From a bacterium (GTDB lineage: Bacteria; Patescibacteriota; Patescibacteriia; Buchananbacterales; GWA2-38-13), in NCBI GenBank assembly GCA_030648715.1, contig JAUSGZ010000014.1:1055-65054 (forward strand): a DNA stretch of 64,000 nucleotides. Reading direction: 5' to 3'. The notes beneath the pieces are model-generated. The model saw only the letters and a program-made list of their open reading frames with translations, did not search any database and was not told where the DNA came from. A program made the position numbers and the translations under genes. Within the stretch, counting starts at the first letter, position 1. Each line of letters begins with the position of its first letter. Shown here piece after piece: positions 7,691 through 38,103 of the stretch.

Positions 7691-8728
7691 CTACGAAAAC
7701 CACTTCAAAAGGCGAATGATGCCCATTTTTGCTGCCTGACGATGTGCCGAGACGTCCTGACGCGAACGTATCTGTTCTCGATGGTCATGATAATATTTAT
7801 ACGCGCGCCAAAGCATTTCCTCGTTCGAGCAGGTTGGCTGCCACTGCAATTCGCGCTTGATCTTTTCAGTATTAAAGGAAAAATCTTCGGCGATCATCCG
7901 ATACTGATACGGACCAAGAGGTGATACGCCAAGGGTATACGCCAGCCGCATCAAAAAAAGCGTCGGCACGCGCGGGAGCGATGTGATCCTCGCTTTCGTT
8001 CCTGCGCGCGAGATGACGGATTGGTACACTTCGCGTAATGATTTCACGCCGTCTGCACCGATATGAAAAGTTGCGGAATGGTGGTACTCCAGTGCCCGTA
8101 GGCAAGCGGCTGCCAAATCCTTGGCGTAGATGAACTGGTACTTATTCTTACCGCCGTCAACCACCCAGACCTTACGGCCCTCGTCAATGAATTCGAATAG
8201 GATCGCCAAAAGCCCAAGCCGTCCCTCATCAATGATGGTTGGGCAGCGAAATGTAATGATGTGAAGATCTCGTTCATACTCGGATAATATTTTTTCTGCT
8301 ACCAGCTTTGACCGACCGTAAATTTCTGCCGGATCCGGAGCATCCTCTTCACGGACCGGCCGGTCAAATGATCTACCCCAGAGGCAATTGGAAGAAATAA
8401 AGATCAACTTGGGCACCCGAAAATCACGGCAGCATTCCGCCACGTTCCTCGTCCCGTCGACATTCGACGTCCACAAAAAATCTCTATCTTTCGCGGCGTG
8501 CGCGAGCACGGCTGCGCAATGGAAAACCGCGGTGTAACCCTCCGGTTGGAATAAACGACGCAGGGAAACGCGGTCGCGGATGTCTCCCTGGATCGGCGTC
8601 AACCGAGGATGCTGCTGCGCATGTGGCACGAGGTCGATGCTATCGCAAGAAAATCCTGATGCCAGGAGATGGTCAATCAAGATCCCGCCGAAAAAACCCG
8701 CTCCTCCAGTTACTAAAATTTTTTTCAT
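7691..8728 (-). CDS. NAD-dependent epimerase/dehydratase (extended SDR)
   Basis: 345 aa. N-terminal Rossmann VTGGAGFFGGIL and the SDR catalytic core. It is the last gene of the operon with two GT-C genes. Confidence 0.8.
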   Translation of the reverse strand: MKKILVTGGAGFFGGILIDHLLASGFSCDSIDLVPHAQQHPRLTPIQGDIRDRVSLRRLFQPEGYTAVFHCAAVLAHAAKDRDFLWTSNVDGTRNVAECCRDFRVPKLIFISSNCLWGRSFDRPVREEDAPDPAEIYGRSKLVAEKILSEYERDLHIITFRCPTIIDEGRLGLLAILFEFIDEGRKVWVVDGGKNKYQFIYAKDLAAACLRALEYHHSATFHIGADGVKSLREVYQSVISRAGTKARITSLPRVPTLFLMRLAYTLGVSPLGPYQYRMIAEDFSFNTEKIKRELQWQPTCSNEEMLWRAYKYYHDHREQIRSRQDVSAHRQAAKMGIIRLLKWFS

Positions 8729-17742: not shown

Positions 17743-19312
17743 AACGCAGCTCGCAGCGGCGCGGGCTGTTCGCGGCAATGACCTGTTCGATGGTCACCGT
17801 CTTTTCAACCCCGCTGATGATATTCCCTTGAGCCCCGGGAACCGTCGGTTCCAGATAGGTGAACGGCCGCACCGCCTGCCGCGGCAAAAGTCCCATCAGG
17901 TACAGATCGAGATCGCTGTACGGCCGGCGAATGAGATTGACGTCCTCGGCCAGCTTGGAAAGGAATTTTCCGTCGCCCAGCGGCCGCCAGCCGGAACCGC
18001 CGAGCGGCGAGATGAACCCTGCGTAGTAACTCCAGTGAATGCCATCATCGCGGAGCAGCGCCACGGAGTCCTGATCGTCGGCGGTACGGAACTTCACTCG
18101 TGCTCCCCATTGGTGTCCCAATTCATGCAGTAGAAAGTTGTCCAGCCGCAGCGCATCGCTTTCTTCCGTCAAGGTGAACCGCCCCAGGTCGCCCATGACG
18201 ATAATGCCCTTCAGCTTGCCGCGGCTGCCGAACAGGTCGGCGGCATTCTGCAGCGGCAGCGAGAGCCCGGTTATCCCATTCGTGACCAACGTTTCGTGCC
18301 CTTCGTGGTTGGGTTTTTCCTCTTGGACGGCGAAGTTGGTGAAGAGAATGAGGAAATCGTACGCATCGGGATGCTGGTCGTAGAAACGCAACGCCGTTTC
18401 TTCCGTCAGGACGCGTCCGCCCTGCGGCGTGGCTCGGGAGAGTAACCCGTCGTCGGTGAGAACGACCGGGTCGGCGATTTCCGCAGCCCCCAGCTGTTGA
18501 GTCGCCCAAGCGTACGCTTCCGGCAAACGGGCGTGCACGGCGGCCAATGACTCGCGGTACGATGCCGCCAGCTCGCCGCGCGCCACCAAAATGGGTGCGA
18601 TGGTAATGGTCGTTCCGCCGCAATCCTGCGTGGACCACTCGCGCGGCGCCAATGGGTCGGCAATCCTTGTGTCCGCGCCAAAGATCTGGCGTGCCCGAGT
18701 GGGCAAGGTGCGCGCGCCAGTGACCACATCCTCCTTGCGGTACCCGTTGGCAAAAACCGCCGCCCAGTCCGCGAACGGCTGCAATAAATTTCCCTGTTTC
18801 CAATAGTATGTCCCTTGCCCGCGCACCTGATAGACGATGGAACTGGGCAATTGGTAGGTACGGTCCAGCGGCTCTCCAACCGCATAGTTTTCAAAAAATA
18901 CTTCCGGCAGGTCGACGACCCGCTGCTGCCAGCGCGACCCGAATATCGCGGCCGCCACTTCCGCGGAGGAGATCGGACGCAGCACGCCGCCCTGCTCGAC
19001 CGCGTACACCGTCGGGGCGCTGGGCACTTTCAACAACGCGGTGCCCGGCTTCATGGTCAGGTTGCGCCCCAGCGGGTAGCCCGCAAGGGTGAGCGCGGCG
19101 ACCGTCTGGACCGCGGAGAAATCATCCCCGTACCAGCTGCGATAGGTGGGCGCGTTGGGGAACGCATGGCGCACGCCCTGCGTATCCAAAAAATACACGG
19201 CGGAATTTCCGACCGCCTTGATGAGCGTACCCGCGGCGGCCGCCGGCAGAACGGGAACAACATGAACCACGACGAGGGCCACCGCTGTGCTCCACAGCGC
19301 GATTTTTTTCAT
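17741..19312 (-). CDS. secreted zinc-metalloprotease-like protein (HExxH)
   Basis: About 523 aa from MKKIALWSTAVALVVVHVVPVLPAAAAG (signal peptide; ATG at 19312). Contains HELGHQWGARV, an HExxH zinc-binding motif. The longer ORF start at 19441 lacks an RBS and signal peptide. Confidence 0.65.
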   Translation of the reverse strand: MKKIALWSTAVALVVVHVVPVLPAAAAGTLIKAVGNSAVYFLDTQGVRHAFPNAPTYRSWYGDDFSAVQTVAALTLAGYPLGRNLTMKPGTALLKVPSAPTVYAVEQGGVLRPISSAEVAAAIFGSRWQQRVVDLPEVFFENYAVGEPLDRTYQLPSSIVYQVRGQGTYYWKQGNLLQPFADWAAVFANGYRKEDVVTGARTLPTRARQIFGADTRIADPLAPREWSTQDCGGTTITIAPILVARGELAASYRESLAAVHARLPEAYAWATQQLGAAEIADPVVLTDDGLLSRATPQGGRVLTEETALRFYDQHPDAYDFLILFTNFAVQEEKPNHEGHETLVTNGITGLSLPLQNAADLFGSRGKLKGIIVMGDLGRFTLTEESDALRLDNFLLHELGHQWGARVKFRTADDQDSVALLRDDGIHWSYYAGFISPLGGSGWRPLGDGKFLSKLAEDVNLIRRPYSDLDLYLMGLLPRQAVRPFTYLEPTVPGAQGNIISGVEKTVTIEQVIAANSPRRCELR

Positions 19313-20581: not shown

Positions 20582-20610
20582 CCCCGCCGACACGACGGGG
20601 CCTTTTTTAT
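20582..20610 (+). terminator. rho-independent terminator
   Basis: ccccgccgacacgacggggcc followed by ttttttat. Confidence 0.55.
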
Positions 20611-21602
20611 ACCCGGAAGTGCGCCCGGTACCACGCGACGAATTTCTGCAGCCCGTCGGCAAATTTGGTCGTCGGTTCCCATCCCAAAAGGCGCTTGGCC
20701 TTGGCAACATCGGCAAAAGTTTTCGGCACGTCGCCAGGCTGCATCGGCAGCATCCTGGTGTTTGCCTTCACCCCCAGCGCGGCTTCCAAAGTTGCGACGA
20801 ATTCGCCGAGTCGTATCGGCTGGTGATTACCGAGGTTGATGAGCTCGTACCCCTGGGGCCGATCGATGGCGGTCACCACGCCCCGGACGATATCATCAAC
20901 AAAGGTAAAGTCGCGCTCCATATTCCCATGGTTGTAGAGGTCGACGGTCGCGCCGGAGAGCATCTTTTGCGTGAAACTGAAGTACGCCATGTCGGGCCGG
21001 CCCCACGGTCCGTAGACGGTGAAGAACCGCAACCCCGTGCAGGGGGTCGCGTGCAGCCGGTGATAGTTAAGCGCGAGCAGTTCCACGGTTCGCTTGGTGG
21101 CCGCATACAACGAGACGGGCTGCTCCACGCGGTCATCCTCGCTGAAAGGAACCTTGTCATTATCGCCGTACACCGACGAGGAAGAAGCGAAGATGAACGG
21201 TGGATTGCCATGCCGGCGGGAAATCTCCAACAGCGTGAGTGTACCCAGCACGTTGGACTCCACATACACGCGCGGGTTCTCCAGGGAGTAACGTACTCCG
21301 GCTTGCGCTGCCAGATGAGCTATCTTGTCGAACGCATGGTCGCGGAAGATCTTTTCCATCGCCGAGCGGTCGGTCAGGTCGGCGCGCACCACGGTCGGCG
21401 AGAATTCTGCAAGCAAATGCTGCACCCGCGCCTCCTTGAGCGCCGGGTCATAGTAGGGATTGAAATTATCTACGACAACGACTTGGTCGCCGCGCGAAAG
21501 CAACGCTCGCGCCACATGCGCCCCAATGAAGCCAGCACCGCCCGTAACCAGGATCGTTTGCGGCTTGCCCGGCAGTCCAATGGTCGAGCGTGTCTTACTC
21601 AC
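20607..21602 (-). CDS. NAD-dependent epimerase, UDP-glucuronate 4-epimerase-like
   Basis: 331 aa. ILVTGGAGFIGAHV Rossmann, DNFNPYYDPALK signature (typical of the UDP-GlcA 4-epimerase / WbpP-like subgroup), and YAATK catalytic YxxxK. Confidence 0.8.
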   Translation of the reverse strand: MSKTRSTIGLPGKPQTILVTGGAGFIGAHVARALLSRGDQVVVVDNFNPYYDPALKEARVQHLLAEFSPTVVRADLTDRSAMEKIFRDHAFDKIAHLAAQAGVRYSLENPRVYVESNVLGTLTLLEISRRHGNPPFIFASSSSVYGDNDKVPFSEDDRVEQPVSLYAATKRTVELLALNYHRLHATPCTGLRFFTVYGPWGRPDMAYFSFTQKMLSGATVDLYNHGNMERDFTFVDDIVRGVVTAIDRPQGYELINLGNHQPIRLGEFVATLEAALGVKANTRMLPMQPGDVPKTFADVAKAKRLLGWEPTTKFADGLQKFVAWYRAHFRV

Positions 21603-22594: not shown

Positions 22595-22602
22595 GGGAAT
22601 GA

Positions 22603-22634
22603 AAAACGCCCCGAGACTGCGGGGCGTTTTTTTA
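22603..22634. terminator. bidirectional rho-independent terminator
   Basis: aaaaacgccccg-agac-tgcggggcgttttttt. Confidence 0.65.
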
Positions 22635-22638
22635 TTAT

Positions 22639-24930
22639 CTACCGTTTCGCTTCTTCCGCCAGCTGTTCGGGAGTTTTTATCTTGAGCGTGCGCTCCTTGG
22701 GCTGCTGCGGACGGACCTTTGGGCCAGCCAAGGGGATGGAGAACGAGAACACGCTGCCTTTGCCTTCGCCTTTGGACTCGGCGCCGATCATTCCCTCATG
22801 GATATCCACGATTTTTTTTGCGACGTACAGGCCCAGGCCCGTGCCCTCGGTGTGCACCAGCGCCGACCCGCGCCCGCGGGAGAATTTCTGGAAGAGGTGG
22901 GCGATAGTTTCCTTACTCATCCCCATACCGCTGTCCTGGACCGAGAACGTCAGGTACCCGGCCGGCTGTGCCGACAGCACAACATGGATGCTCCCCTTTT
23001 CGGTGTACTTCACGGCGTTATCTATGAAATTGATCATCACCTCGTGCAGTTTGTCTTTATCAACCACGGGTTTGGGCAGCGGTTTCGCCGGCTTTTCCAG
23101 CACGAGCGTTAGCTTTTTCTTCTCCGCCTGCGGCTTAAGGCTCTCCACGACGCCGGCGGCCATTTCATAACAGTCGGTCGGTTCCCACGTGTAAACCTGG
23201 CGGCCTGATTCAATGCGCGAAATGTTGAGCAGATCTTCCACCAAACCAATGAGCCGCTCGTTGGCTTCATAGACTTTGTCCAGCTGCTTGTGGATGAGCG
23301 GCGGGACCCTGCCGAAGGCCTGCTCGTTGATCATGGAGATAAACCCCTTGATGATGGTGAGCGGCGTACGCAGCTGGTGGCTGGCGATGGATATGAACTC
23401 GGACTTAGTGGCATCCAACCGCCGCAATTCGGCGTTCGCCGCCCGTAATTCCTGCGTGGCCTTGCGGACCTCATCTTTCAAAACTTCCGCGAAGTGCTTT
23501 TGCTCTTCATAGAGCAAGGCGTTCTCAATGGAGACTGCCAACTGCCCCGAGACGATCTTGAGCACCCGCAAGTCCTGGCTATTGTACGGCTCGCCTGATT
23601 TCTTGTTGCCGATGACAACCACCCCGATGAGCTTATCCTGTAAGCGGAGAGGGACGATGACTGCCAGATCCTGCTCGTGCATCGCCAGCATCAATTCAGG
23701 TTTAACGAACAGCTGGAGATTTTCTCCGTTCTCGTACTCGGTCTTGCGTTCTTCAATGACGAAAATGCCGGGCGTGCGCTTGAACTGTTCGAACATCACC
23801 CGCTCGTTGCCGCGCGCCAGCGCTTCGGCAACTCCTGGCGGGAACCCCTCCTGGTGAGCGATGTACAGTTTGCTTTTTTTATTGATGAGCGCCACGCCGA
23901 GCTTGTCCGCATGGAACGCTTCCGTCAAGGTGTGCGAAATGGACTGCAGGAGGTGGGCGAAATCCAGAGTGGACGATGTAATATGGTTGACCCGCGCGAT
24001 GAGCACATCCGGGTCGTAGGATTTTTTGTACAGGAAAGTATTGGTCGCGCGCTCAATGATGTCCCGCAGCGGTTTGTAAAAGACCGTCACCAACACCGCC
24101 AGAATGACGCCGGACAAAATGTTGGACTGCAGCCCCGCTAATTCTGCAAAGAGATAGGTAAAGAGCGCTGAAATGATCGAGAAAATACCGGTGATGATGA
24201 AAACGATGGCGCCGAAGGCAATGGTCCTAAAGATAATTACCCGAATATCCATGAATCGGTATTTCGCTATAGCGTAAGCCGTGAAGGAAACAAAAAATAT
24301 AGAACTTGCTGAATCGAGTGGGATAAACTCATTAATACCGAAAAGCGGAAGAATAACACTTACGGAGGTGGCTATAGTAGCGTAAATACTCAAGCCAATA
24401 AGTACATAGAGAATCTGTTTCCGCCGAACTCCACTAGATTGGTAAAATTTACTAAAGAGATAAAATAAACTGAAAAATAAAATTGAAATAATATATAAAC
24501 CGTAAATTGGAAAAAGTAATCCGTATCGCGCGTCGCCACCGCCGAAGGTGATGTTCTCTGCACCGACCAAAATAAGGTTTGAAAACTGTGCCAACAGTGC
24601 AAAAAAAGAACCGCAGAGATAAAGAATCCCGGTCAATTGTCGGCTGAATCGTCCGGTAGCAAAGTACAGAATCCATGCCACACACGCGGAAACAAGAAAA
24701 ACAGCGGTAGCATAACCGTTACGCAATAAAGCTAAACTAGGAAAAACGCCCGTTAAGAAATTATTAATCACCCAGTACCCAGAAATGAGTGCGAAAATAA
24801 AAAATAATTTTGCTGACAATATTTTCCGTTTCGAATATAAAACGATGAAAGCCAGAGCAACGTTCAAAACGCCAACCAAAAGCAAGAAATAAACCATATC
24901 TAGATCTAATGGACTTCTTTCCGGAGGCAA
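22639..24930 (-). CDS. sensor histidine kinase: N-terminal ~9-10 TM sensor domain, GAF domain, HisKA, HATPase_c
   Basis: 763 aa. H-box SHQLRTPLTIIKGF, N/G1/G2 boxes (NAVKYT, DSGMGM, GTGLGLYVAKK), GAF-like region, and a long polytopic N-terminus. The N-terminal ~260 codons (24150-24930) are conspicuously AT-rich while the kinase core is GC-rich. Confidence 0.85.
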   Translation of the reverse strand: MPPERSPLDLDMVYFLLLVGVLNVALAFIVLYSKRKILSAKLFFIFALISGYWVINNFLTGVFPSLALLRNGYATAVFLVSACVAWILYFATGRFSRQLTGILYLCGSFFALLAQFSNLILVGAENITFGGGDARYGLLFPIYGLYIISILFFSLFYLFSKFYQSSGVRRKQILYVLIGLSIYATIATSVSVILPLFGINEFIPLDSASSIFFVSFTAYAIAKYRFMDIRVIIFRTIAFGAIVFIITGIFSIISALFTYLFAELAGLQSNILSGVILAVLVTVFYKPLRDIIERATNTFLYKKSYDPDVLIARVNHITSSTLDFAHLLQSISHTLTEAFHADKLGVALINKKSKLYIAHQEGFPPGVAEALARGNERVMFEQFKRTPGIFVIEERKTEYENGENLQLFVKPELMLAMHEQDLAVIVPLRLQDKLIGVVVIGNKKSGEPYNSQDLRVLKIVSGQLAVSIENALLYEEQKHFAEVLKDEVRKATQELRAANAELRRLDATKSEFISIASHQLRTPLTIIKGFISMINEQAFGRVPPLIHKQLDKVYEANERLIGLVEDLLNISRIESGRQVYTWEPTDCYEMAAGVVESLKPQAEKKKLTLVLEKPAKPLPKPVVDKDKLHEVMINFIDNAVKYTEKGSIHVVLSAQPAGYLTFSVQDSGMGMSKETIAHLFQKFSRGRGSALVHTEGTGLGLYVAKKIVDIHEGMIGAESKGEGKGSVFSFSIPLAGPKVRPQQPKERTLKIKTPEQLAEEAKR

Positions 24931-25928
24931 TAGTTGATATTAAACCACGCAACGGTTCTATCCATCGCCTTCTCAAAACTTAAAAAACCATTATCGAGAT
25001 GCTGTTTCATTGAGCTGGAATCAACCTCTAGGCTGGACGTTACCATTGAAAGGCTCGACCGAGTAATCATTGGTCTTGTCTTTATGCCTAACAATCGGTG
25101 ATAATTCTCAAACAATAAGGAGGCGACATAGCCTAAGACGTACGGAATATTCACGACGACGGCTTTTGCATTACAGGCTGGTTTAAAAAATGTCACGAAC
25201 TGTCGCCACGTAATCTTAGCATCGTCGCAGAGATTCATTTTGGTGCCGCTGGGTAATCCATCGATGCGATCTAAAACATTCCTGACGAAAAAGGCAAAAT
25301 TCTCAACGTACAATAACGGTATATATGTATCCTTCTTACCAGGCAGTAAAAGAAAACCTTGCTTTAGGTTGTGGATAATTTCTGGAATCAAGGTTTTATC
25401 ACCTGGACCGAACAGCCACGCTGGCCGAAGAATAACAACCTTAAAATATTCACGACTATCAACGGCGGCTAACTCGCCAAGAAGTTTCGTTTTTTGGTAG
25501 GGATGGCCCGAAGAAGTGTAAGGAGTAGTTTCGGAAAGTACCGTGTGTTTCCCGTGCTTATAGTCCAAAACATCAATGGTACTTATGTAGAGGAAATTTT
25601 TAATCGCAGCTAGACGCGATGCCTCCAGTAACCGACGCGTCCCATTAACGTTAACCTCATAAAAAATTTCCTTGGGACCCCAATCAGATACGACAGCCGC
25701 TGAATGGATAACATGCTCTATCTCATTTTTCTCTAAAAGGTCAAACAGGGCTTCTGCACTGCTCAAATCACCTTGTAACAGGGTAATCCTCGGATTATTG
25801 ACGAATAATTGAGTGTGTACACTAATTTTTCTTACCAAGGCGTATACTTGGTAACCATGCAAAGCCAACACTTTGCATATAGAGCGCCCCGCAAACCCAT
25901 TCGCTCCGGTTACTAAAACTTTTGCCAC
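24906..25928 (-). CDS. NAD(P)-dependent epimerase/dehydratase-family reductase (extended SDR)
   Basis: 340 aa. VLVTGANGFAGRSI Rossmann, YQKTK (YxxxK). It lies in a lower-GC region and is co-directional with the AOS gene and the histidine kinase (25-bp overlap with the kinase start). Confidence 0.75.
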   Translation of the reverse strand: MAKVLVTGANGFAGRSICKVLALHGYQVYALVRKISVHTQLFVNNPRITLLQGDLSSAEALFDLLEKNEIEHVIHSAAVVSDWGPKEIFYEVNVNGTRRLLEASRLAAIKNFLYISTIDVLDYKHGKHTVLSETTPYTSSGHPYQKTKLLGELAAVDSREYFKVVILRPAWLFGPGDKTLIPEIIHNLKQGFLLLPGKKDTYIPLLYVENFAFFVRNVLDRIDGLPSGTKMNLCDDAKITWRQFVTFFKPACNAKAVVVNIPYVLGYVASLLFENYHRLLGIKTRPMITRSSLSMVTSSLEVDSSSMKQHLDNGFLSFEKAMDRTVAWFNINYCLRKEVH

Positions 25929-25939
25929 GTAGGTGTTCG

Positions 25940-27160
25940 TTACGACCCTTGCCTTTTTTCTAATTTTTCAAGTAGCTTATCAATATGCTGCTTCGTATGG
26001 CTTGCTGTCAGGGTCAAACGTAGCCGTTCGTAGCCGACCTCGACTGCGGGTCGCCGAATGGCCGGAGCCAAAATCCCCGCCTTATATAGCGCATCGGAAA
26101 GTTCAATTACTTTTTTCTCGGAGCGTACCATTAGCGGAACGATCGCTGTCTCGCCGGGTATGGTCTCCAGACCTAAGCGCTGCAGCCCTTGACGCAGGTG
26201 GGTAGCATTCTCTTTCAGTTGTTTTCGGAGACCATGCCCATCGCGGATGATCTCTAGAGTCTTGAGCAGCCCAGCAACAAAGGCCGGCGGTATTGGGTCT
26301 GAAAAAATATAGCCGCGTCCGGTCACGCGAATGTAATCCGCCAAATCTTTTGAAATGGCGGCGACGTAGCCGCCAATACTCCCCCATGCCTTCGTGAAAC
26401 TCGCCATTACCAAATCTACTTTCCCTGCGACACCAAGGTGAGCGGCGGTACCCTCGCCGTTCGGTCCTAATACACCGGCACCATGGGCGTCGTCTACGTA
26501 TAACACTGCGTCATACTCCTGGCTTAAATCGACCAATCGAGGAAGATCAGCAAAGTCGCCATCCATGCTAAAAACGCCGTCGGTAACGATCGCCTTGCGA
26601 ACTATTTTACGACGGCGCAGCTCTCGTTCGAGTCCGTCGTAGTCGCGGTGTTTATAGATCACTCGTTCTGCATACGACAGGCGCACTGCATCAACGATAC
26701 TGGCATGGTTCAGCTGGTCACTGAAAATGGCACCCGGTTTGTCTTTCTTGATCAATGGAAAATATGGGAAAGGGTCTGCCAAATACCGTATGACACTTGT
26801 ATTCGCGAGAAAGCCAGAGGAGAAGGTCACCGAATCCTTAACCTGCAAGAAATTCGCCAGTTCCCTCTCAAATTGCTGTTGAACGTCCAATGAACCCGAC
26901 AGTAGCCGAGTGCTCCCGGAGCCAACGCCGTAGCGTTCAACCGCTTGCTGAACTGCAAGTTTAATTTCAGGATTATTTGCCAACCCCAAATAGTTATTGG
27001 AACAGAAGGAGAGATATTTCTTACCCCCAATGATAATTTCCGGAGCGGTCGAGGGGCCGGAAATTTCTGGTATGCGAGGGTATAAATTGTTTTCGCGGAG
27101 GTGACGAACGACTTCTGAAAAATACCCAAGTTTGCCATCCTGCATACCTTCATCCGACAT
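25940..27160 (-). CDS. PLP-dependent alpha-oxoamine synthase family acyltransferase (BioF / Kbl / serine palmitoyltransferase / CqsA-like)
   Basis: 406 aa. VDDAHGAGVLG and the PLP-lysine motif SFTKAWGSIGGY are diagnostic of the AOS family. Subfamily cannot be assigned from sequence alone. Confidence 0.8.
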   Translation of the reverse strand: MSDEGMQDGKLGYFSEVVRHLRENNLYPRIPEISGPSTAPEIIIGGKKYLSFCSNNYLGLANNPEIKLAVQQAVERYGVGSGSTRLLSGSLDVQQQFERELANFLQVKDSVTFSSGFLANTSVIRYLADPFPYFPLIKKDKPGAIFSDQLNHASIVDAVRLSYAERVIYKHRDYDGLERELRRRKIVRKAIVTDGVFSMDGDFADLPRLVDLSQEYDAVLYVDDAHGAGVLGPNGEGTAAHLGVAGKVDLVMASFTKAWGSIGGYVAAISKDLADYIRVTGRGYIFSDPIPPAFVAGLLKTLEIIRDGHGLRKQLKENATHLRQGLQRLGLETIPGETAIVPLMVRSEKKVIELSDALYKAGILAPAIRRPAVEVGYERLRLTLTASHTKQHIDKLLEKLEKRQGS

Positions 27161-27331
27161 TATTACGAGTTATCAACCACACAACATTATACCGCTTTTG
27201 GCAAGGGAAAACAAAAAAACCGGCGTGGGTCGGGTATCTACGCGGAGTAAAAAAATGAACGGATAACTCTAATTGCGGCTACCAGCTATTTCTAGTATAG
27301 TTATATTATCCCGACAAGAACTCAGGATTGT

Positions 27332-27901
27332 ATGACACAGGAAAAGCCGAACCCAAGCTCCGCACCAGGAGTCGTACTGCGCACAGCCATTCTCCTATTT
27401 ATCTATGGCATCGCTGGTCTTATCTACCTTTTTTGGGTTATCCAAGGAAGCTACGGGGCGATTTTCCTCGCCATTGACGGCTTGGTTTTTATCTTGGTGA
27501 TATTGACGGGTTCAATATGGACAATTATGGCTGGACTTTCATTAATTTCTAGAAAAAAACTTCCTACCAACAATTTAGGATGGGTGGCTACCCTCACAAT
27601 ATTGCCAGCATCTTTTGCAGCATACGATATCGCAAGCTATTATGGTATGCCAATTATTGGGGCATGGGCGGCACTTATTGGAGGTTTAATAATTTTTTAT
27701 AAAAAACTTTCAAAAGATATTAGATTGGTTATGATTTTAATCGCAGTACCTACGGGCATTCTGGCATACGATATTTTGAGACATAGCAGCAAAACACAAA
27801 TCATTGGCGACCTTACCACTTCAGGATTGTTTATTTTTGTAATCATCCTCTACCATCACCTACAAGCTTCTATCAAAGTCCTTAAACGACAGCAAGAGTA
27901 G
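27332..27901 (+). CDS. hypothetical small polytopic membrane protein (5-6 TM), AT-rich
   Basis: 189 aa ORF on plus strand, hydrophobic throughout, terminator directly downstream. Confidence 0.5.
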   Translation: MTQEKPNPSSAPGVVLRTAILLFIYGIAGLIYLFWVIQGSYGAIFLAIDGLVFILVILTGSIWTIMAGLSLISRKKLPTNNLGWVATLTILPASFAAYDIASYYGMPIIGAWAALIGGLIIFYKKLSKDIRLVMILIAVPTGILAYDILRHSSKTQIIGDLTTSGLFIFVIILYHHLQASIKVLKRQQE

Positions 27902-27915
27902 TAAATTTTGGGGGC

Positions 27916-27951
27916 AAAAAAATCCCGACAATGTTACACTGTCGGGATTTT
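27916..27951. terminator. bidirectional rho-independent terminator
   Basis: aaaaaaatcccgacaatgttacactgtcgggatttt. Confidence 0.65.
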
Positions 27952-27977
27952 GGTTCACGAAAGAGCTTACCTCCCTT

Positions 27978-30752
27978 CTAGTACTCAAGGCAGTAGAGAT
28001 CGTCCAGAGTCGAGTCGGAACCAGGTGTGAACGGCCCAGGGGCCGGGGGGTCAGTGGTACCAAGAAAAAGCCAACCGAGCGTGAAAATGGGGTCGGAGAT
28101 ATCTAAGTCACCAGAGTCATTGGCGTCCGCGGCGTCAGCACAGTCCACTCGGCCACCACCGGTAAAGAGGTAGCCAAGAGTGTTGACGGAATCAGAGATA
28201 TCAACTGCGCCGTCAGTATTGGAGTCTCCGCGACGGAACGAAATCCCGCCGGTGACTACGACCATCACTTCATCCATACCGACGTTGCCGGCGGGGTCGC
28301 GAACGATGAGAGTAATGGAGAATTGGCCTGACGGCAGGTCAACTGTTGGTTGAACCCCGGCGGCGAGCAACCCATCCTCAAGCATCCACCAATACTGCAG
28401 CGGCGCATCACCGTCAGGGTCGGTTGTTGCCGTGCCATCCAACGCAACGGCGCCGAAGCCATCAATGTCTGCGGACACCTCCTGGTCCGGTCCGGCATTG
28501 ACAATCGGCGACTGATTGCCGTTCCACTGGTCTTGCCAGAAGGTTAAGTTACGCAGATAGACGGTCGAGCCGGGCAGGAGCGATTGAAGCTCAAACTGGA
28601 ACGTCACCATCTGACCGTGCAGACGACGAATGTCGCGGAGCCCAGAGTTCAGGTAACCCTGACCTAAGGTAAGGTCCGAAAGTACCTGTAACACAGGATG
28701 GAAGGCATCGGTGGTGGTAACTGAACACTCAAATGTTGCGGGAACTTCCGCTTCGGTGAAGCTGTATTCGAAACTCACATAGTCCCAGGTTGATTGGACT
28801 ACGAGCGGGATGGAGTAACGAGCGAAGACCCCTTCCTGTACCTGTTGACCGCCACCGCGTCCACCACCTAACGGAAGGTTAAGGAGGTACTCACCGATAT
28901 CGGTTATACTACCGCAGTTGTTGCCCAGACTGCACTCGAGATTACCGAGGTCGAGACCGACCGTGGTTGTCGGAAACGAGACGAACGGCTCTTGACACTC
29001 TTGGTAGTTGTCAAACCCAAATACACCGCTATCGTCACCGGCCAACCTTCGACACAGTGAAAGTTCCGAGAACTGCAGCGTACCAGTGGCCTCACACATA
29101 CTTGACAGAGGTCGATTCCGATCTGGATGTGCAAGGTCAGTTACCAATATCGAAGCGCCAAAACCAACAGTACCAAAGAGTACCTCGGCAAAACACCATG
29201 GTTCCTGCCTAAGCAATGGATCGCGCCCTATGAGAGTGGTATTAAGATACCAATCAACCCGATGGCTGACCCCAGGAACATTGACCCACAGATTGGCAAA
29301 GTGAGTGCTTAGATTGGTGAGCCCGTGATAGGAATCTACATACGTCCCCACTCTCCGGAGCGCTGGTACCTCCTCATTGAGCAATCCGCTGCCAACCCAG
29401 TCCGGCGTATCCAATTGTGTCACTTGGGCTGGTGGGAACACATTCGGCACAGTTACGCCTTGAGCCAAATTGATGGCCGCAGTCGTGACAATCCGCGACC
29501 CGAGACTATGACCGATGAAATGCACCGGTCCTGTATAGCCGTCGGGCAATAGCACCCGAAGACTGCTCGCAAGGCGCTGTGCCTGTGGCTCGATACCAGT
29601 TACTAGCGGCTCTAACTGACTTGCCTCGGTAATCCAATCCCAGGCAAGAATGTTAACCCCACCAGGTACCCGGGAAGAAATTTGGTGAGCCATCTGCAGC
29701 ATCCAACTGTTGAGCTGGTCGCCGCCAAAAATCGGCGGGTCCCATCCGTGCACAATCACGGCGGTGCCATATCTCGGATCGAAGTGGGGATCACACGGGA
29801 AAAAGCCGGTCCAAGATCCTTTTTCTTGCGGAGTCGTGCCGGGGACATAGATTTGCATCTGCGTAAAGCTACCGGGCGTTGCCCGAATGCAAATCTCGGA
29901 TGTTGGCAGGGAAACCCCCACGGAGTTGATGGCTCGTACCCGGTAGCAGATATCTCTGGCTTCCGGTAGTGGAACATCTGCTACCTGTATGGTAGATGAG
30001 CTAAAGGGTATTTCCGGTGGTAATGTCAACCACTCGGAGCAGTATCCGACTCTCCTTTCGATACGGTAACGGTCTACCCACAAAAGACTCGGATGCCATT
30101 CCAGTATTGCAATGCCGCTACCCTCGGGGTGCTGAACGGTAAAGCCACCCGGAGCGTCGGGTAGTTGAGGCGTACCTGACACCGAAACGCGGACCTTCGC
30201 GAGTGCCCAACTCTCATCATCAAGCGCTTGCAACCCACCGGCAAGAAAATTGATGATCATGCCTGAATCGACATGTGGGGAGCTAAAACGTAGCTCGTAC
30301 TGTGAGTAGGCATGATTGGCATGCAGAAGGGCACCAGTTCCCGCAGGATGGTCACCGCCCGGGTACTCATCAGGATACGCCTGTCGATTGCCGGCACTCC
30401 CGGTCGTACTGAACGTCGTGCGGAGCAGCTTTCGCACGTCTCCGACATTGATCTCCCACACGTCCGGACCGGGCACGCCGTTTCCATCCCAGGTGCGCAA
30501 CAGCCACAGATCGAACTCGATGGTGACTTCACCATGCGATGGAAGCTGCTCCAGCGACAGACTGACAGTCTGGTTTCCAAACGAGCCAAGAATTGGCTCA
30601 TCAGTTGGGGAGGAGCGTATTGCCCCCGACGACCACTCGCGGCCGACGCCGCTTTCGAAGTTGGTCGAGTAGACCACCTGCTCCTGCGCGATGACAGAGA
30701 GTGAAGGAATTGCAGCGAACGCTGCCACAAACAACATCTGCATCCAGAACAT
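27978..30752 (-). CDS. large secreted multidomain protein: signal peptide, beta-rich/FN3-like region, alpha/beta-hydrolase (lipase, GHSLG) domain, PKD-like region, C-terminal dockerin-like repeats
   Basis: 924 aa. N-terminal MFWMQMLFVAAFAAIPSLSVIAQ signal peptide, VHFIGHSLGSRIV (GxSxG nucleophile elbow), C-terminal DSNTDGAVDISD / DANDSGDLDISD (type I dockerin-like Ca-binding repeat pair). Confidence 0.7.
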   Translation of the reverse strand: MFWMQMLFVAAFAAIPSLSVIAQEQVVYSTNFESGVGREWSSGAIRSSPTDEPILGSFGNQTVSLSLEQLPSHGEVTIEFDLWLLRTWDGNGVPGPDVWEINVGDVRKLLRTTFSTTGSAGNRQAYPDEYPGGDHPAGTGALLHANHAYSQYELRFSSPHVDSGMIINFLAGGLQALDDESWALAKVRVSVSGTPQLPDAPGGFTVQHPEGSGIAILEWHPSLLWVDRYRIERRVGYCSEWLTLPPEIPFSSSTIQVADVPLPEARDICYRVRAINSVGVSLPTSEICIRATPGSFTQMQIYVPGTTPQEKGSWTGFFPCDPHFDPRYGTAVIVHGWDPPIFGGDQLNSWMLQMAHQISSRVPGGVNILAWDWITEASQLEPLVTGIEPQAQRLASSLRVLLPDGYTGPVHFIGHSLGSRIVTTAAINLAQGVTVPNVFPPAQVTQLDTPDWVGSGLLNEEVPALRRVGTYVDSYHGLTNLSTHFANLWVNVPGVSHRVDWYLNTTLIGRDPLLRQEPWCFAEVLFGTVGFGASILVTDLAHPDRNRPLSSMCEATGTLQFSELSLCRRLAGDDSGVFGFDNYQECQEPFVSFPTTTVGLDLGNLECSLGNNCGSITDIGEYLLNLPLGGGRGGGQQVQEGVFARYSIPLVVQSTWDYVSFEYSFTEAEVPATFECSVTTTDAFHPVLQVLSDLTLGQGYLNSGLRDIRRLHGQMVTFQFELQSLLPGSTVYLRNLTFWQDQWNGNQSPIVNAGPDQEVSADIDGFGAVALDGTATTDPDGDAPLQYWWMLEDGLLAAGVQPTVDLPSGQFSITLIVRDPAGNVGMDEVMVVVTGGISFRRGDSNTDGAVDISDSVNTLGYLFTGGGRVDCADAADANDSGDLDISDPIFTLGWLFLGTTDPPAPGPFTPGSDSTLDDLYCLEY

Positions 30753-34428: not shown

Positions 34429-34500
34429 CTCCCTGTAGCTCAACGGATAGAGCAGCGCCGTCCTAAGGCGATGATGGGGGTTCAATTCCCTCCAGGGAGA
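34429..34500 (+). tRNA. tRNA-Arg (anticodon CCT), unusual C1-G72 and G27.A43
   Basis: CTCCCTG acceptor / CAGGGAG-A, D arm GCTC-AACGGATA-GAGC, anticodon arm GCGCC-GTCCTAA-GGCGA, T arm GGGGG-TTCAATT-CCCTC. 72 nt with no encoded CCA. An AT-rich region lies immediately upstream. Confidence 0.65.
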
Positions 34501-34566
34501 ATGAAGGCGATCGGCGCATCGGCGCCAAAGCCTGCAGCCGTGTACTTGATTGGCATATCTGCTAGG

Positions 34567-35316
34567 ATGGATGCAGTAAACCATTCTATGGCTGCCGCAA
34601 AGACTTCGCAAAAACTACCGGTGCCCGATGCCACGGCTTCGGAGTTCATCACCGTGATGGCGCACCAGCTCCGCACGCCGCTCTCGGCGGTCAAGTGGGT
34701 CATGAATATGCTGCTTGCCGGCGATGTCGGTGAACTGACTCCGGAACAAAAAAGTTTGCTGCTCAAGGGCTACCAGAGCAACGAACGCATGATCAGCCTG
34801 GTCAACGACATGCTCAACGTCGCGCTGATCGAAGCCGGGCGTTTGCGTTTCCGCGCGACACCCCGCTCATTTGAGGATTTAGTGAATGAAGTGATGCTGG
34901 ATTTTTTTGGCCCTATTCAGCGTAAAAAGATCCGGTTCGCTTTGAACGTAACACCCCCCGCTCTGCCCAAAGTTTCCCTGGATCCGGACCGCATGAAGAC
35001 GGTACTGCACAACCTGCTCGAGAATGCGGTACAATACACGCCGGTGAACGGCTCCATTACCGTAGGATTGGAAAAAGACGGTGAGAAAATATCGGTCACG
35101 ATCCAAGACAGCGGGATCGGCATCCCCAAGCAGCAGCAGAAAAAGATATTTTCCCGGTTTTTCCGCGGCGATAATGCCGTGCGCATGGAAACCGACGGCT
35201 CCGGCCTTGGGCTGTACGTCGTGCGCCGGATCATCGAGCAGCATGGGGGTCGCGTCTGGTTTGAAAGCGAGGAAGGAAAAGGAAGCGCCTTTCACTTTAC
35301 TCTTCCCGTGGCCTAG
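34567..35316 (+). CDS. cytoplasmic sensor-less histidine kinase (HisKA + HATPase_c only)
   Basis: About 249 aa from MDAVNHS. H-box AHQLRTPLSAVKW, N-box NLLENAVQYT, G-boxes DSGIGI / GSGLGLYVV. No TM or sensor domain. The ORF-track start at 34471 overlaps the tRNA, so the internal ATG at 34567 was chosen. Confidence 0.75.
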   Translation: MDAVNHSMAAAKTSQKLPVPDATASEFITVMAHQLRTPLSAVKWVMNMLLAGDVGELTPEQKSLLLKGYQSNERMISLVNDMLNVALIEAGRLRFRATPRSFEDLVNEVMLDFFGPIQRKKIRFALNVTPPALPKVSLDPDRMKTVLHNLLENAVQYTPVNGSITVGLEKDGEKISVTIQDSGIGIPKQQQKKIFSRFFRGDNAVRMETDGSGLGLYVVRRIIEQHGGRVWFESEEGKGSAFHFTLPVA

Positions 35317-35330
35317 CCTATCACGAGCGT

Positions 35331-36116
35331 ATGCCCAAGCAACCGCCAACGGACAAAATCTCGGTCCTCATCATCGAAGACGACAAGGTGCTGGGGGAAA
35401 TTCTGCTTCGTAAGCTGAAAACCGAGGGATTTGAGGCCTCACTAGAACGCGATGGCGAAGCCGGATTAACAGCCATTCGCGCCAAATTACCGACGCTCGT
35501 GCTTTTGGATATCGGGCTACCAAAACTGGACGGCTACCAAGTGCTGGAGGCAATGGCAAAGGATGGGCTGACCAAAAATGTTGCCGTCATCATCATTTCC
35601 AACTCGGGCCAGCCGGTGGAACTGGACCGCGCAATGTCCCTTGGGGCTCGTGATTACCTGGTAAAAACCGAATTTTCGCCTGACGAAGTGATGGCGAAAG
35701 TTCGGCGTCAATTGGCACCGGCTGCCGAGCGGACCGCAAAGAAGAAGAAAGGCAAAAAGGTTCTGATGGTGGAGGATGACAAATTCCTGCGCGACTTGGC
35801 AGTGAAAAAGATCACCCTTGCCGGATACCAAGTGGTTACGGCCTCAGACGGTAATGAAGCCATAGCCGTTGCCGCGAAAGAAACCCCCGATATCATCCTA
35901 CTGGACATCATTTTACCAGGCGTTGATGGCTTTGAAATTCTCCGTACGTTGAAGTCGGACGGCAAGCTCAAAAAAATACCGGTCGTTATGCTTTCTAACC
36001 TTGGGCAGGAAACTGACATTGAACGCGGCCTTGGGTTAGGTGCCATCGACTACCTCGTGAAAGCTCACTTTACTTTGGAAGATATTATTGAAAAAATTGA
36101 ACGCTACATTGGATAA
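35331..36116 (+). CDS. double receiver-domain response regulator (REC-REC, no output domain)
   Basis: 261 aa. Two CheY-like halves (VLIIEDD...LLDIGLPKLDG...KTEF and VLMVEDD...LLDIILPGVDG...KAHF) joined by a Lys-rich linker. Confidence 0.85.
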   Translation: MPKQPPTDKISVLIIEDDKVLGEILLRKLKTEGFEASLERDGEAGLTAIRAKLPTLVLLDIGLPKLDGYQVLEAMAKDGLTKNVAVIIISNSGQPVELDRAMSLGARDYLVKTEFSPDEVMAKVRRQLAPAAERTAKKKKGKKVLMVEDDKFLRDLAVKKITLAGYQVVTASDGNEAIAVAAKETPDIILLDIILPGVDGFEILRTLKSDGKLKKIPVVMLSNLGQETDIERGLGLGAIDYLVKAHFTLEDIIEKIERYIG

Positions 36117-36267: not shown

Positions 36268-36341
36268 GGGCCTGTAGTACAGTGGTAATACGCCGCATTC
36301 GCATTGCGGAGGCGGGGGTTCGATTCCCCCCAGGTCCACCA
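36268..36341 (+). tRNA. tRNA-Ala (anticodon CGC), CCA encoded
   Basis: GGGCCTG acceptor with G3.U70 (Ala identity), anticodon arm CCGCA-TTCGCAT-TGCGG, T arm GGGGG-TTCGATT-CCCCC, 3' CAGGTCC-A-CCA. Followed by the terminator hairpin aatcccgtacgcgggatttttt (36341-36367). Confidence 0.85.
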
Positions 36342-36441: not shown

Positions 36442-38103
36442 ATGAGTACTGTTCCCATGCACTACCAATTTCTGCCGAAATCTACCCCCAGGAATAAAAA
36501 GGAAATTATTTTCCGATTATATTTGTATCCGCTGACAGCCATTCTATCGCTGCTGCTTTTGTTTTTTTCCAATCCGAACCGCCTTGCTCATGACCAGATC
36601 GACCACAAATTGTTTTTCATGATATATGACCAGCCAAGCTTGTTTGCTGATGATTACCTCTGGGGTAGTGAACGTCGAAATCTGGTAGACAACCGCTATT
36701 CTTTCACGATAATCAAAAAAATAGGGCAATTCACAGGTAGCGATGAAGTAGCTCGATGGTTACTCGTTCCGTTCGCTTTCTTTTTCTTTACGATCGGTAT
36801 GTTTGAGTTTACGAGGATGATAACCAAGGAATATTTCTTTAGTTACCTTGTCGCAGTGCTTTCAAACATTCATATCCCTCATGTTTTTTCTGCAGAATGG
36901 GGTCTACCTGGACCATCGGAAATTGACCCATGGGTTTTTTATCAATCACTGACACCACTCATCTTGGCTATTTTTTATAAAGGTCTGGTTTCCGGAAAAG
37001 ATTGGATGATAGTGGTGAGCTTTGCAATCGCAGGTTTACTGGGAAACCTTCACATTATTTCAGCTTTTTACCTCATCGGAATACTATTTATTAGCTATAT
37101 AGTTTCACGTGGAACTAATAGTAAATATATATTAAAATCGTTAATTTACGCTGTATTAAGTGGAATATTATCATTACCATACGTTTTGCGACATTATTTA
37201 GATAAAATACCACACCCAGTTTCATTTAATTCATCGAACGCTGAGGCATGGGACGCGATCAACGTAATTGCCGGCCATACAACACTGAACGGCCGTATTG
37301 CCAATCTCAATGCCTGGGTAATAGGCGAGTGGTACTTATTTTGGCCTTTCGTGGCTGCACTGGTGGCACTTCTGCTCATCGTGCGACGCTGGCGCCTTAT
37401 TGGCATTTCACCGTTCACCAAGTTTGCTGTACGTTTCATTCTCGCGACCGTTCTCTTCAATACCGCCTTTTCCGCATTGCAAATTTTCCGGCTGTACGTT
37501 CTTCACCAACTGCCGTTCTGGAACGAGCCCCGCGGCATGCAGCTGATCTATTTCGTTTTCTTTCCGGCCCTGGGATTACTTGGGACAGTACTCTGGCAAC
37601 GGACGCGAGTTTGGTGGAACTTCGAACGGCAACTTATCGTACTTGCGATCGCTATATTGACTGTCAGTATCGGAGTTCGCGTTAATCTGCCGCTGCTGGC
37701 CGACCGGTACCGGGACCACATTACCCCACGTTACAGTTTTAATACCTGCGATGCGCAACTTTACTTCGCGTTCAACCATGCGTCACTACCGCCAGGTCCG
37801 GTATTGATCGACCCAGGCTATTGGAGCGCGTTTCGCATCTGCACCGGACGCTCGGTAGTCGTGCAAAACCGCGACAAAGCGTTCGCTTATTCGCAAGGCG
37901 CAGATACCATGATGGAATGGTACCGTCGCTTCAGAGAGGCGAACACGGGATTTGCATCCGGGGGGGAGGGTCTGCTGCAAACGGCAAAAAAATATGGGTC
38001 ACGAGTTATCGTTAGCCGAAATTGCGTGCCACTGCCGACGGATGTGGACATTCGGCGCACCAGCGTCGGCAACGAGGGTTGCATTGACGCCCTTCCTGAC
38101 TGA
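36442..38103 (+). CDS. hypothetical large polytopic membrane protein (~14 TM), AT-rich; possible glycan polymerase/GT-C-like
   Basis: 553 aa ORF with low GC relative to neighbours. Hydrophobic segments throughout. No diagnostic motif. Confidence 0.5.
   Translation: MSTVPMHYQFLPKSTPRNKKEIIFRLYLYPLTAILSLLLLFFSNPNRLAHDQIDHKLFFMIYDQPSLFADDYLWGSERRNLVDNRYSFTIIKKIGQFTGSDEVARWLLVPFAFFFFTIGMFEFTRMITKEYFFSYLVAVLSNIHIPHVFSAEWGLPGPSEIDPWVFYQSLTPLILAIFYKGLVSGKDWMIVVSFAIAGLLGNLHIISAFYLIGILFISYIVSRGTNSKYILKSLIYAVLSGILSLPYVLRHYLDKIPHPVSFNSSNAEAWDAINVIAGHTTLNGRIANLNAWVIGEWYLFWPFVAALVALLLIVRRWRLIGISPFTKFAVRFILATVLFNTAFSALQIFRLYVLHQLPFWNEPRGMQLIYFVFFPALGLLGTVLWQRTRVWWNFERQLIVLAIAILTVSIGVRVNLPLLADRYRDHITPRYSFNTCDAQLYFAFNHASLPPGPVLIDPGYWSAFRICTGRSVVVQNRDKAFAYSQGADTMMEWYRRFREANTGFASGGEGLLQTAKKYGSRVIVSRNCVPLPTDVDIRRTSVGNEGCIDALPD

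Follow-up and report, generated by a model that had tools for sequence, protein, structure and literature searches.

A histidine kinase gene of a Patescibacteria contig as a probable mosaic of an exchangeable sensor cassette and an inherited kinase core

In staphylococci, the hypervariable region of the agr locus covers agrB-agrD-agrC, so that production genes vary together with the 5' sensor part of the kinase gene while the kinase half is conserved (PMC10482373). For the Bacillus ComQXPA system, the passage of PMC4624242 that cites Tran et al. 2000 describes a ComX signal and an N-terminal ComP membrane sensor that diverge together between strains over a conserved kinase domain. In the CqsA/CqsS (LqsA/LqsS) systems, a gene of the alpha-oxoamine synthase (AOS) family adjoins that of a membrane sensor kinase. 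In genomes of the Candidate Phyla Radiation (CPR), such synthase-kinase pairing has already been published: Bernard et al. 2020 count 51 adjacencies of a CqsA homologue and 18 of a LuxI homologue with a sensor kinase, and propose complete quorum-sensing systems (PMC7567580). Here we analyze a histidine kinase gene and its upstream neighbors in a 64,000-nucleotide stretch of contig JAUSGZ010000014.1 (assembly GCA_030648715.1), which as a whole is called the window. As in agr, the variable block at this locus spans production genes and the sensor-encoding 5' part of the kinase gene, the 3' kinase part being conserved; as in ComQXPA, a putative signal side and the N-terminal sensor vary jointly over a conserved kinase.

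The kinase reading frame and its two parts are as follows (positions are those of the window).

22639..24930, minus strand: histidine kinase open reading frame (ORF), 763 codons
24229..24897, minus strand: AT-rich swappable sensor module, allele "type A", with seven predicted transmembrane (TM) helices; Pfam HisKA_7TM
22639..24228, minus strand: conserved GC-rich kinase core, consisting of a TM8-TM9 hairpin, linker (ERATNTFLYKKSYDPD), GAF, HisKA and HATPase_c

In the 763-codon numbering, Pfam placed HisKA_7TM at residues 16-229, GAF at 325-470, HisKA at 509-576 and HATPase_c at 624-735. The HisKA_7TM (PF16927) match reached 36.2 bits, above the cut-off of 28.6, and covered profile positions 2-222 of 224. 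The phospho-acceptor and ATPase domains are intact (HisKA, 4e-16; HATPase_c, 3e-25), the H-box sequence SHQLRTPLT is present, and Pfam found no Response_reg domain, so the architecture is 7TM + 2TM + GAF + HisKA + HATPase. Seven hydrophobic stretches were detected in the sensor module, and the swappable part corresponds almost exactly to the HisKA_7TM domain, while the final two TM helices (codons 224-280) fall in the GC-rich part. Since the homologues begin at MVYFLLL, translation likely starts at the ATG at 24897, located 8 nt past the stop codon of the upstream gene; this would give a gene of 22639..24897 and a protein of 752 amino acids (aa).

Within this gene, the GC content changes abruptly. 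It falls from about 0.56 at 23.9 kb to 0.38-0.42 at 24.3 kb, with the drop at about 24.1 kb. In 40-codon windows, the GC content at third codon positions (GC3) ranged between 0.25 and 0.47 as far as codon ~220, and between 0.65 and 0.88 starting at codon ~240. The maximum-likelihood change point was codon 234 (window position ~24228), with a 2-log-likelihood interval of codons 214-265 (24135-24288); GC3 was 0.368 before and 0.747 after it (log-likelihood ratio, 49.4 versus a maximum of 9.3 in 2000 permutations). A preceding interpretation of this DNA, the sequence-only reading, had described A/T-ending codons in the N-terminal part followed by a GC-rich core. Indeed, the step is there, but the boundary is neither at residue ~260 nor at the GAF domain, as had been claimed: it lies ~90 codons ahead of GAF, right after the 7TM module. 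Taking the codon usage of the window itself as a basis, we also calculated an expected GC3, matched for amino acid composition. The sensor part was far below expectation (0.38 versus 0.72; z = -11.4), whereas the core was not (0.75 versus 0.69). Furthermore, the TM segments of seven other polytopic proteins of the window had a GC3 of 0.76-0.91 (expected, ~0.75), and that of the kinase's own TM8-TM9 (0.71) equaled expectation. Thus, GC3 is not uniform along the gene and the AT skew is not common to all polytopic proteins, which upholds the earlier view that hydrophobicity does not suffice as an explanation.

The AT shift extends to three neighboring genes, including the two upstream ones for which it had been noted before. 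These genes are listed below, with L001 and L003 denoting two related loci.

24906..25928, minus strand: extended short-chain dehydrogenase/reductase (SDR; NAD-dependent epimerase/dehydratase) gene; Pfam Epimerase, 6e-35; GC3 0.44
25940..27160, minus strand: AOS (BioF/KBL/SPT-like pyridoxal phosphate-dependent acyltransferase), first gene of the operon; Pfam Aminotran_1_2, 2e-57; GC3 0.52
27332..27901, plus strand: TM189, a small polytopic membrane protein; GC3 0.39; 97-98% conserved in L001 and L003

The host belongs to the GC-rich Parcubacteria (Patescibacteria), and the best kinase homologues, with the same architecture and 43-89% identity, come from Patescibacteria/Parcubacteria. The loci L001/L002 (Parcubacteria bacterium Gr01-1014_31), L003 and L004 have a common neighborhood consisting of a PKD protein, TM190, AOS, the kinase, a 286-aa gene, a second epimerase and a phosphoribosyltransferase-like gene; AOS abuts the kinase in all of them, with no SDR between. 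Comparing sensor and core separately, as had been recommended, revealed that their histories disagree. The identities to the window protein were as follows.

P0001 / L003: core 97-98%, sensor 27%
P0002 / L001: core 96%, sensor 32-38%
P0003: core 73%, sensor 67%
P0005: core 54%, sensor 64%
P0006: core 55%, sensor 60%

The P0001 (L003), P0002 (L001) and window proteins are near-identical from ...IIFR(T/S)-AFGAIVFIITG on and unrelated before it. The nucleotide sequences agree with this. By blastn, L001 was collinear with the window at 84-90% identity over 12-36 kb (high-scoring segment pairs, 35.7-13.4 kb), except for short intergenic gaps and 24263-25966, the SDR and the sensor, where no L001 match was found. 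Of the 7.2-kb L003 contig, ~3.5 kb aligned at 88-94%, and no L003 match was found over 24220-27185, which comprises AOS, SDR and sensor. The kinase core DNA is 89-94% identical to that of both loci.

The two edges of the block lie in these regions.

24215..24262, minus strand: proposed recombination junction; codons ...RYRFMDIR-VIIFRTI-AFGAIV..., encoding a loop, conserved and positively charged, that follows the 7TM module
27161..27331, no strand assigned: AOS/TM189 divergent intergenic region with a perfect TATAAT at 27191-27186 (minus strand), conserved with L003

At the junction, the blastn edges were 24262 (L001 and L004) and 24219 (L003). The nucleotide identity turns on within ~45 bp, from the RYRFMDIR codons to AFGAIVF, and coincides with the GC3 change point; the breakpoint that was to be looked for in related genomes was therefore found, against L001, L003 and L004. 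In the family alignment A1, junction residues R14, D17, I18, R19 and R24 are invariant. At the other edge, L001 similarity stops at 25967, 9 codons ahead of the AOS stop codon, and L003 similarity stops exactly past the conserved TATAAT (blastn edge, 27186). This TATAAT is probably a promoter and the left edge of the variable block with respect to L003; a consensus promoter scan called none at 27191-27186 (weak -35), and the assignment was made from conservation alone.

The block has two properties of a classical genomic island, atypical composition and absence from, or difference in, close relatives, but not those of a site-specific mobile element. The genes scanned between 17.7 and 38.1 kb include no integrase or transposase gene, no tRNA gene is near the block (the closest are at 34.4 and 36.3 kb), and its flanking repeats are short and at chance level. 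The flanks contain tracts that are 95-100% identical between the window and L001 within a 72-90% background, e.g., 27331-29131 and 17751-18560. This patchwork is typical of recent homologous exchange. Evidently, the lineages do recombine, and homologous recombination is the likely mechanism of the replacement.

The SDR is missing from this position in L001, L003, L004 and L005. In L006 and L007, which are AT-rich contigs (GC, 0.34-0.35), an SDR gene is located directly upstream of a kinase with a window-type sensor; compared to the window, the SDR is 44-46%, the sensor 60-64% and the core only 53-54% identical. The second, resident epimerase of the window (20607..21602) is just 24-26% identical to the SDR. 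The window AOS, on the other hand, is shared with L001 at 95% protein and 84-89% nucleotide identity, which is the background divergence, and is ~40% identical to the AOS of L003 (40%), L004 and L005 (41%). AOS is next to the kinase in L001, L003, L004, L005 and L066 and one gene apart from it in the window; L005 combines the window sensor type with a GC-rich core, but the gene preceding its kinase gene encodes an AOS. From these comparisons, SDR and sensor are one unit and AOS is a separately exchangeable neighbor, which is replaced in L003. Of the joint arrival of sensor, SDR and AOS that had been suggested, the SDR and the sensor are thus retained as one block, also paired in L006 and L007, while the AOS drops out.

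Two scans of the collection yielded a family of 42 non-redundant loci, 36 of which contained the full sensor and core and were used for pair statistics. The 7TM-GAF-kinase architecture is common to all 42 loci and to the full-length homologues; what varies is the sensor allele on the core, and the notion that a foreign sensor was fused to a kinase in a single event is not tenable. At a core identity of at least 70%, 24 of 25 pairs had a sensor identity of 14-36%. Conversely, at a sensor identity of at least 50%, the sensor was more alike than the core in 7 of 17 pairs, e.g., the window and L007 (64 versus 53%), L004 and L066 (65 versus 54%), and L090 and L094 (77 versus 64%). The nearest neighbors by core and by sensor agreed for 4 of the 36 sequences, and the rank correlation between sensor and core identity was 0.16. 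Importantly, a homologous gene was located immediately upstream in 80% of the similar-sensor pairs, compared to 25% of the similar-core pairs and 1.2% of the other pairs. We conclude that the histories of sensor and core are uncoupled and that the sensor type goes with the immediately upstream gene. Recombination onto a resident core, as had been proposed, is the best reading of the window gene, but a single private acquisition is not, since the pattern is that of the whole family.

The kinase gene always comes last in a set of tightly packed genes that share its direction, are very AT-rich and vary greatly between loci. According to Pfam, the upstream genes encode AOS; N-acyl synthases of the LuxI/FeeM/Acetyltransf_5 type; SDR/NAD_binding_4 reductases; methyltransferases; radical SAM/SPASM proteins; formyltransferases; pyruvoyl histidine decarboxylase; ICMT/PEMT; amidohydrolase; and free-standing HisKA_7TM proteins.

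The compositional step is also a property of the family. It recurs in orthologues at 61-89% identity, and the L001/L002, L003 and L004 kinase genes show an identical GC3 step, accompanied by AT-rich AOS and TM190 genes; therefore, it is not private to the window genome. We analyzed the 16 loci with enough background sequence, AT-rich hosts included. The sensor GC3 was below the amino acid-matched host expectation in all 16 (z, -1.6 to -11), and the core GC3 was at or above it. Core GC3 followed host GC3 with a slope of 1.05 (r, 0.95), sensor GC3 with a slope of 0.53 (r, 0.90). The AT shift thus belongs to the sensor module everywhere, and foreign AT-rich DNA, as invoked by the sequence-only reading, is not a full account of it. 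The contrast is conspicuous in the window because its host is unusually GC-rich (background GC3, 0.72). In the AT-rich hosts of L010, L011 and L062, the cores exceeded the amino acid-matched expectation with z > 5, so the within-gene contrast is two-sided and not a sensor AT shift alone.

We estimate the probability at about three in four that the kinase gene is a recombinant mosaic, in which an exchangeable SDR and sensor cassette sits on an inherited core and functions as a specificity unit. The core (two TM helices, GAF, HisKA and ATPase) would be part of the inherited, GC-rich Parcubacteria genome. The cassette would consist of the 5' ~670 bp, which encode the seven-helix HisKA_7TM sensor, and of the upstream SDR gene. 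We infer that it was replaced by homologous recombination, with one crossover in the junction codons RYRFMDIR...AFGAIVF (~24215-24262) and the other in conserved upstream DNA, namely, at the 3' end of AOS or, for other lineages, at the promoter. Such swapping would be recurrent across the whole kinase family in Patescibacteria. The cassette enzymes may produce an acyl- or amino-derived small molecule or lipid that the membrane sensor recognizes and the core relays; a swap would then alter the molecule made and sensed and leave the signaling output untouched. By analogy to agr and comQXP, the product of the enzyme would be the ligand of the linked sensor, and AT-richness would be the compositional signature of a hypervariable, horizontally circulating segment.

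Several observations weigh against this reading. The AOS type does not simply covary with the sensor type: the window and L001 have the same AOS and different sensors, and the window and L005 have the same sensor type with an AOS 41% identical, which weakens strict synthase-receptor pairing for AOS. No close donor is among the sampled sequences; the top sensor matches are 65-67% identical and the top SDR match 46%, and an exhaustive search with the sensor module found no sensor nearer than about 65-67%, so that transfer is deduced from incongruence. The order of events among the window, L001 and L003 is not firmly polarized, because their relationships differ by segment; for the same conflict, we dropped the polarity "AOS type a ancestral, L003 derived." In addition, the pairs used for the family statistics are phylogenetically nonindependent, although the effect is large. 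Finally, the sensor is AT-shifted even in AT-rich hosts, and TM189 is AT-rich despite being 96-98% identical among the lineages at the nucleotide level, with no sign of amelioration. Foreign origin alone is therefore insufficient to explain the composition.

These last points are the strength of the idea that AT-richness is intrinsic and maintained, the swap being real but not the cause of the composition. Hypervariable DNA that lacks a homologous partner could escape GC-biased conversion and drift to an AT equilibrium, or AT-ending codons could be selected. In line with this, the 16 low sensors include those of hosts with a background GC3 of 0.27-0.44, cores are at or above expectation and sensor GC3 scales at half the slope, and even orthologues of as little as 61% identity, whose synonymous sites are expected to be saturated, keep the step. 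Moreover, polarized changes in the inherited, AT-rich TM189 gene were nearly balanced (10 from A/T to G/C versus 12 from G/C to A/T). This polarized test has just 22 informative changes and low power, however, and the GC-rich flanks likewise show an excess of G/C-to-A/T changes. A general AT shift of frequently transferred DNA predicts the same pattern, and unrelated sensors on near-identical cores are left unexplained, so that a swap is still required. We give this idea a little less than an even chance; it is compatible with the mosaic and competes with it only over the cause of the AT shift. Frequently transferred DNA is generally AT-shifted relative to its hosts, and both causes, this tendency and escape of a hypervariable segment from GC-biased conversion, fit the data and each other, with the TM189 counts, small as they are, leaning toward a maintained AT state. 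Another option is that the low GC3 merely reflects the hydrophobic composition of a polytopic domain rich in Phe, Ile and Leu. Given the amino acid-matched and TM controls above and the fact that SDR and AOS, which are soluble, show the AT shift too, its probability is next to nil. A chimera of the assembly, in which AT-rich and GC-rich contigs were joined within homologous kinase genes, is conceivable for window DNA that probably stems from a metagenome-assembled genome. It would, however, require two in-frame misjoins, since L001-syntenic GC-rich DNA lies on both sides of the block, and the step recurs at the same codon, with intact frames, in no fewer than five independent assemblies with GC-rich cores (L001 and L002, which are separate, L003, L004, L005 and L053); we consider a chimera hardly credible. 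Scarcely better is in-place divergence of the sensor by very fast evolution under diversifying selection, without transfer. In its favor, sensors have as a rule diverged much more than cores, but sensor types reappear on distant cores with a sensor identity above that of the core (the window and L007), nucleotide similarity falls from ~90% to undetectable within ~45 bp, and the replaced block contains a whole extra gene, the SDR.

With respect to function, a serious rival to the signal cassette is that the operon makes membrane aminolipids, not a diffusible signal, and that the 7TM kinase monitors the state of the membrane or its lipids. The products would be sphingoid-base-like (AOS and a 3-oxo reductase) or N-acyl amino acid lipids (FeeM/OlsB-like) with methylated head groups, and cassette diversity would reflect envelope diversification, e.g., under phage or host pressure. 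Indeed, the window AOS scored best with BioF/KBL/SPT models (314-393 bits; bioF, 393 at a cut-off of 426) and far lower with the CqsA-type model NF005526 (191 bits at a cut-off of 428); against solved structures, it reached 233-270 bits with KBL and SPT and 112 bits with CqsA. It is thus no CqsA orthologue, but a generic enzyme of the BioF/KBL/SPT-like kind. The best, though weak, SDR matches are lipid 3-oxo reductases (OleD) and HpnA, and Acetyltransf_5/FeeM, PEMT/ICMT, an NAD_binding_4 acyl reductase and an AMP-binding enzyme occur in or near the operons. On the other hand, no NCBIfam model reached its cut-off for the window AOS or SDR, and pyruvoyl histidine decarboxylase, radical SAM/SPASM and formyltransferase suit small signaling metabolites at least equally well. 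Tight linkage of the sensor to the adjacent enzyme at the level of alleles is, furthermore, what a ligand-receptor pair predicts. On balance, we regard the aminolipid function as rather unlikely.

The locus falls outside the agr and CqsA/CqsS families but, under the mosaic reading, would work like the agr and comQXP specificity cassettes. It differs from agr in that AgrB processes a ribosomal peptide as the signal, whereas the enzymes linked here belong to several unrelated classes; Pfam revealed no AgrB- or ComQ-like match among the upstream genes. The agr types are alleles within one species, while the variation here is found between lineages that are 89-94% identical at the nucleotide level, which is near or below the usual species limit, and across the whole family. 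The sensor fold (HisKA_7TM with two TM helices and GAF) and the kinase class differ as well. The ComQXPA signal, in contrast, is a peptide pheromone isoprenylated by ComQ and varies within one species; searching the literature for a step in composition at comQXP yielded nothing of use. Like CqsA/CqsS, the locus pairs a synthase-family gene with a membrane kinase, and both kinds of CPR adjacency occur among the loci analyzed here. However, the window AOS is nearer to BioF/KBL/SPT than to CqsA, and the kinase, with 7 + 2 TM helices, GAF and no receiver domain, is set apart by its architecture from the CqsS-type receptor, a hybrid kinase that ends in a receiver domain. The part of PMC7567580 consulted makes no mention of the sensor/core mosaic, the cassette linkage or the compositional step. 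The swappable module corresponds to the Pfam HisKA_7TM domain, and in the literature found, the latter is one entry in inventories of archaeal and eukaryotic kinases, with no ligand or modular exchange described.

CPR bacteria are uncultured, reduced episymbionts, and their sensing of partners is little understood. Here, sequence evidence alone indicates that one of their most widespread membrane kinases consists of two evolutionarily independent pieces with a fixed joint, the sensing piece being inherited along with a neighboring small-molecule enzyme. This would extend the agr/comQXP principle, a specificity cassette ending within the kinase gene, to another bacterial branch and to molecules that are made by enzymes instead of peptide pheromones. 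The gene is also a clean natural case of a within-gene compositional step kept across saturated divergence, which bears on whether variable DNA is AT-rich due to foreign origin or due to locally reduced GC-biased conversion. It is tempting, if doubtful, to go further and suppose that Patescibacteria hold a large recombining library of "plug-in" signal/receptor cassettes, each pairing a seven-helix sensor with one or few ligand-making enzymes and exchanged between species at the fixed junction onto a constant core. If so, the cassettes would provide episymbionts with strain-specific chemical dialects (pherotypes) for the recognition of kin or host, and free-standing 7TM proteins could be extra components, e.g., co-receptors, decoys or exporters.

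Free-standing HisKA_7TM-like proteins of 218-257 aa are encoded upstream of the kinase in operons of relatives, often two per operon (L015:4506-5180, L015:5197-5880, L011:4347-5102, L073:4613-5302, L022:4120-4797 and ~20 more); the window has none. They stop where the sensor module of the kinase stops and form at least three conserved subfamilies. As silent donors for programmed switching they are unlikely: they are 25-40% identical to the fused sensors, and they have their own starts and stops in the operon and lack the RYRFMDIR junction needed for a shared crossover. The window-type 7TM module was also found, N-terminally or internally (from ~270), in proteins of 218 to ~1100 aa (exhaustive-search matches P0121-P0266). 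This range of positions and sizes indicates that the module is joined to many output architectures beyond the GAF kinase.

The 3' end of the kinase gene faces a convergent 285-aa gene, with the following element between them.

22601..22632, no strand assigned: hairpin, likely a bidirectional terminator, with a symmetrical, G+C-rich 13-bp stem flanked by an A-run and a T-run

It is placed 7 nt beyond the kinase stop codon (22639) and likely ends both the AOS-SDR-kinase operon and the 285-aa gene. L003 has two extra genes here (HTH_5/HTH_20 and NUDIX; L003:5815-6570), which follow the kinase gene and precede the 285-aa gene. As the window and L001 lack them, the DNA directly downstream of the kinase is a second site of variation. 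NUDIX genes are close to the kinase in L004 and L006 also. In the closest named relative, at L001:9575-11833 (GenBank VMFR01000007.1, G01um101431_1153), the deposited kinase model of 610 aa is 142 residues short, because the gene caller skipped the AT-rich sensor part; the real frame opens 1 bp after the AOS stop codon and encodes the full kinase of 752 aa.

TM189 adjoins the cassette and lies outside the replaced block with respect to both L001 and L003. It has no Pfam or NCBIfam match, and the sensor-module profile gives no match either, which removes it as a candidate stand-alone homologue of the sensor. At the nucleotide level, 4% of its sites vary among the three lineages, compared to 9-13% in the flanks. 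Between the convergent ends of the TM189 and PKD protein genes, there is a near-perfect hairpin with 16-nt arms (27919-27951), which L001 and L003 also have and which probably serves both genes as a terminator.

No response regulator gene adjoins the 7TM kinase gene in the window. About 10 kb away, the window contains the genes of a HisKA/HATPase kinase that is soluble (34471-35316) and of a protein of 261 aa carrying two receiver domains (35331-36116); a tRNA-Arg gene (34429-34500) overlaps the predicted start of the soluble kinase ORF. Farther on, a gene for a 553-aa polytopic protein with a weak DUF6798 match (36442-38103, plus strand) follows closely downstream of tRNA-Ala (36268-36341) and is strongly AT-shifted (GC3, 0.49; z = -12.5). 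Two minus-strand genes are AT-shifted too, one for a 304-aa protein of no family (704-1618; GC3, 0.48) and one for an epimerase (7691-8728; GC3, 0.57). The AT-shifted genes at 36442, 704 and 7691 may be imported or variable segments.

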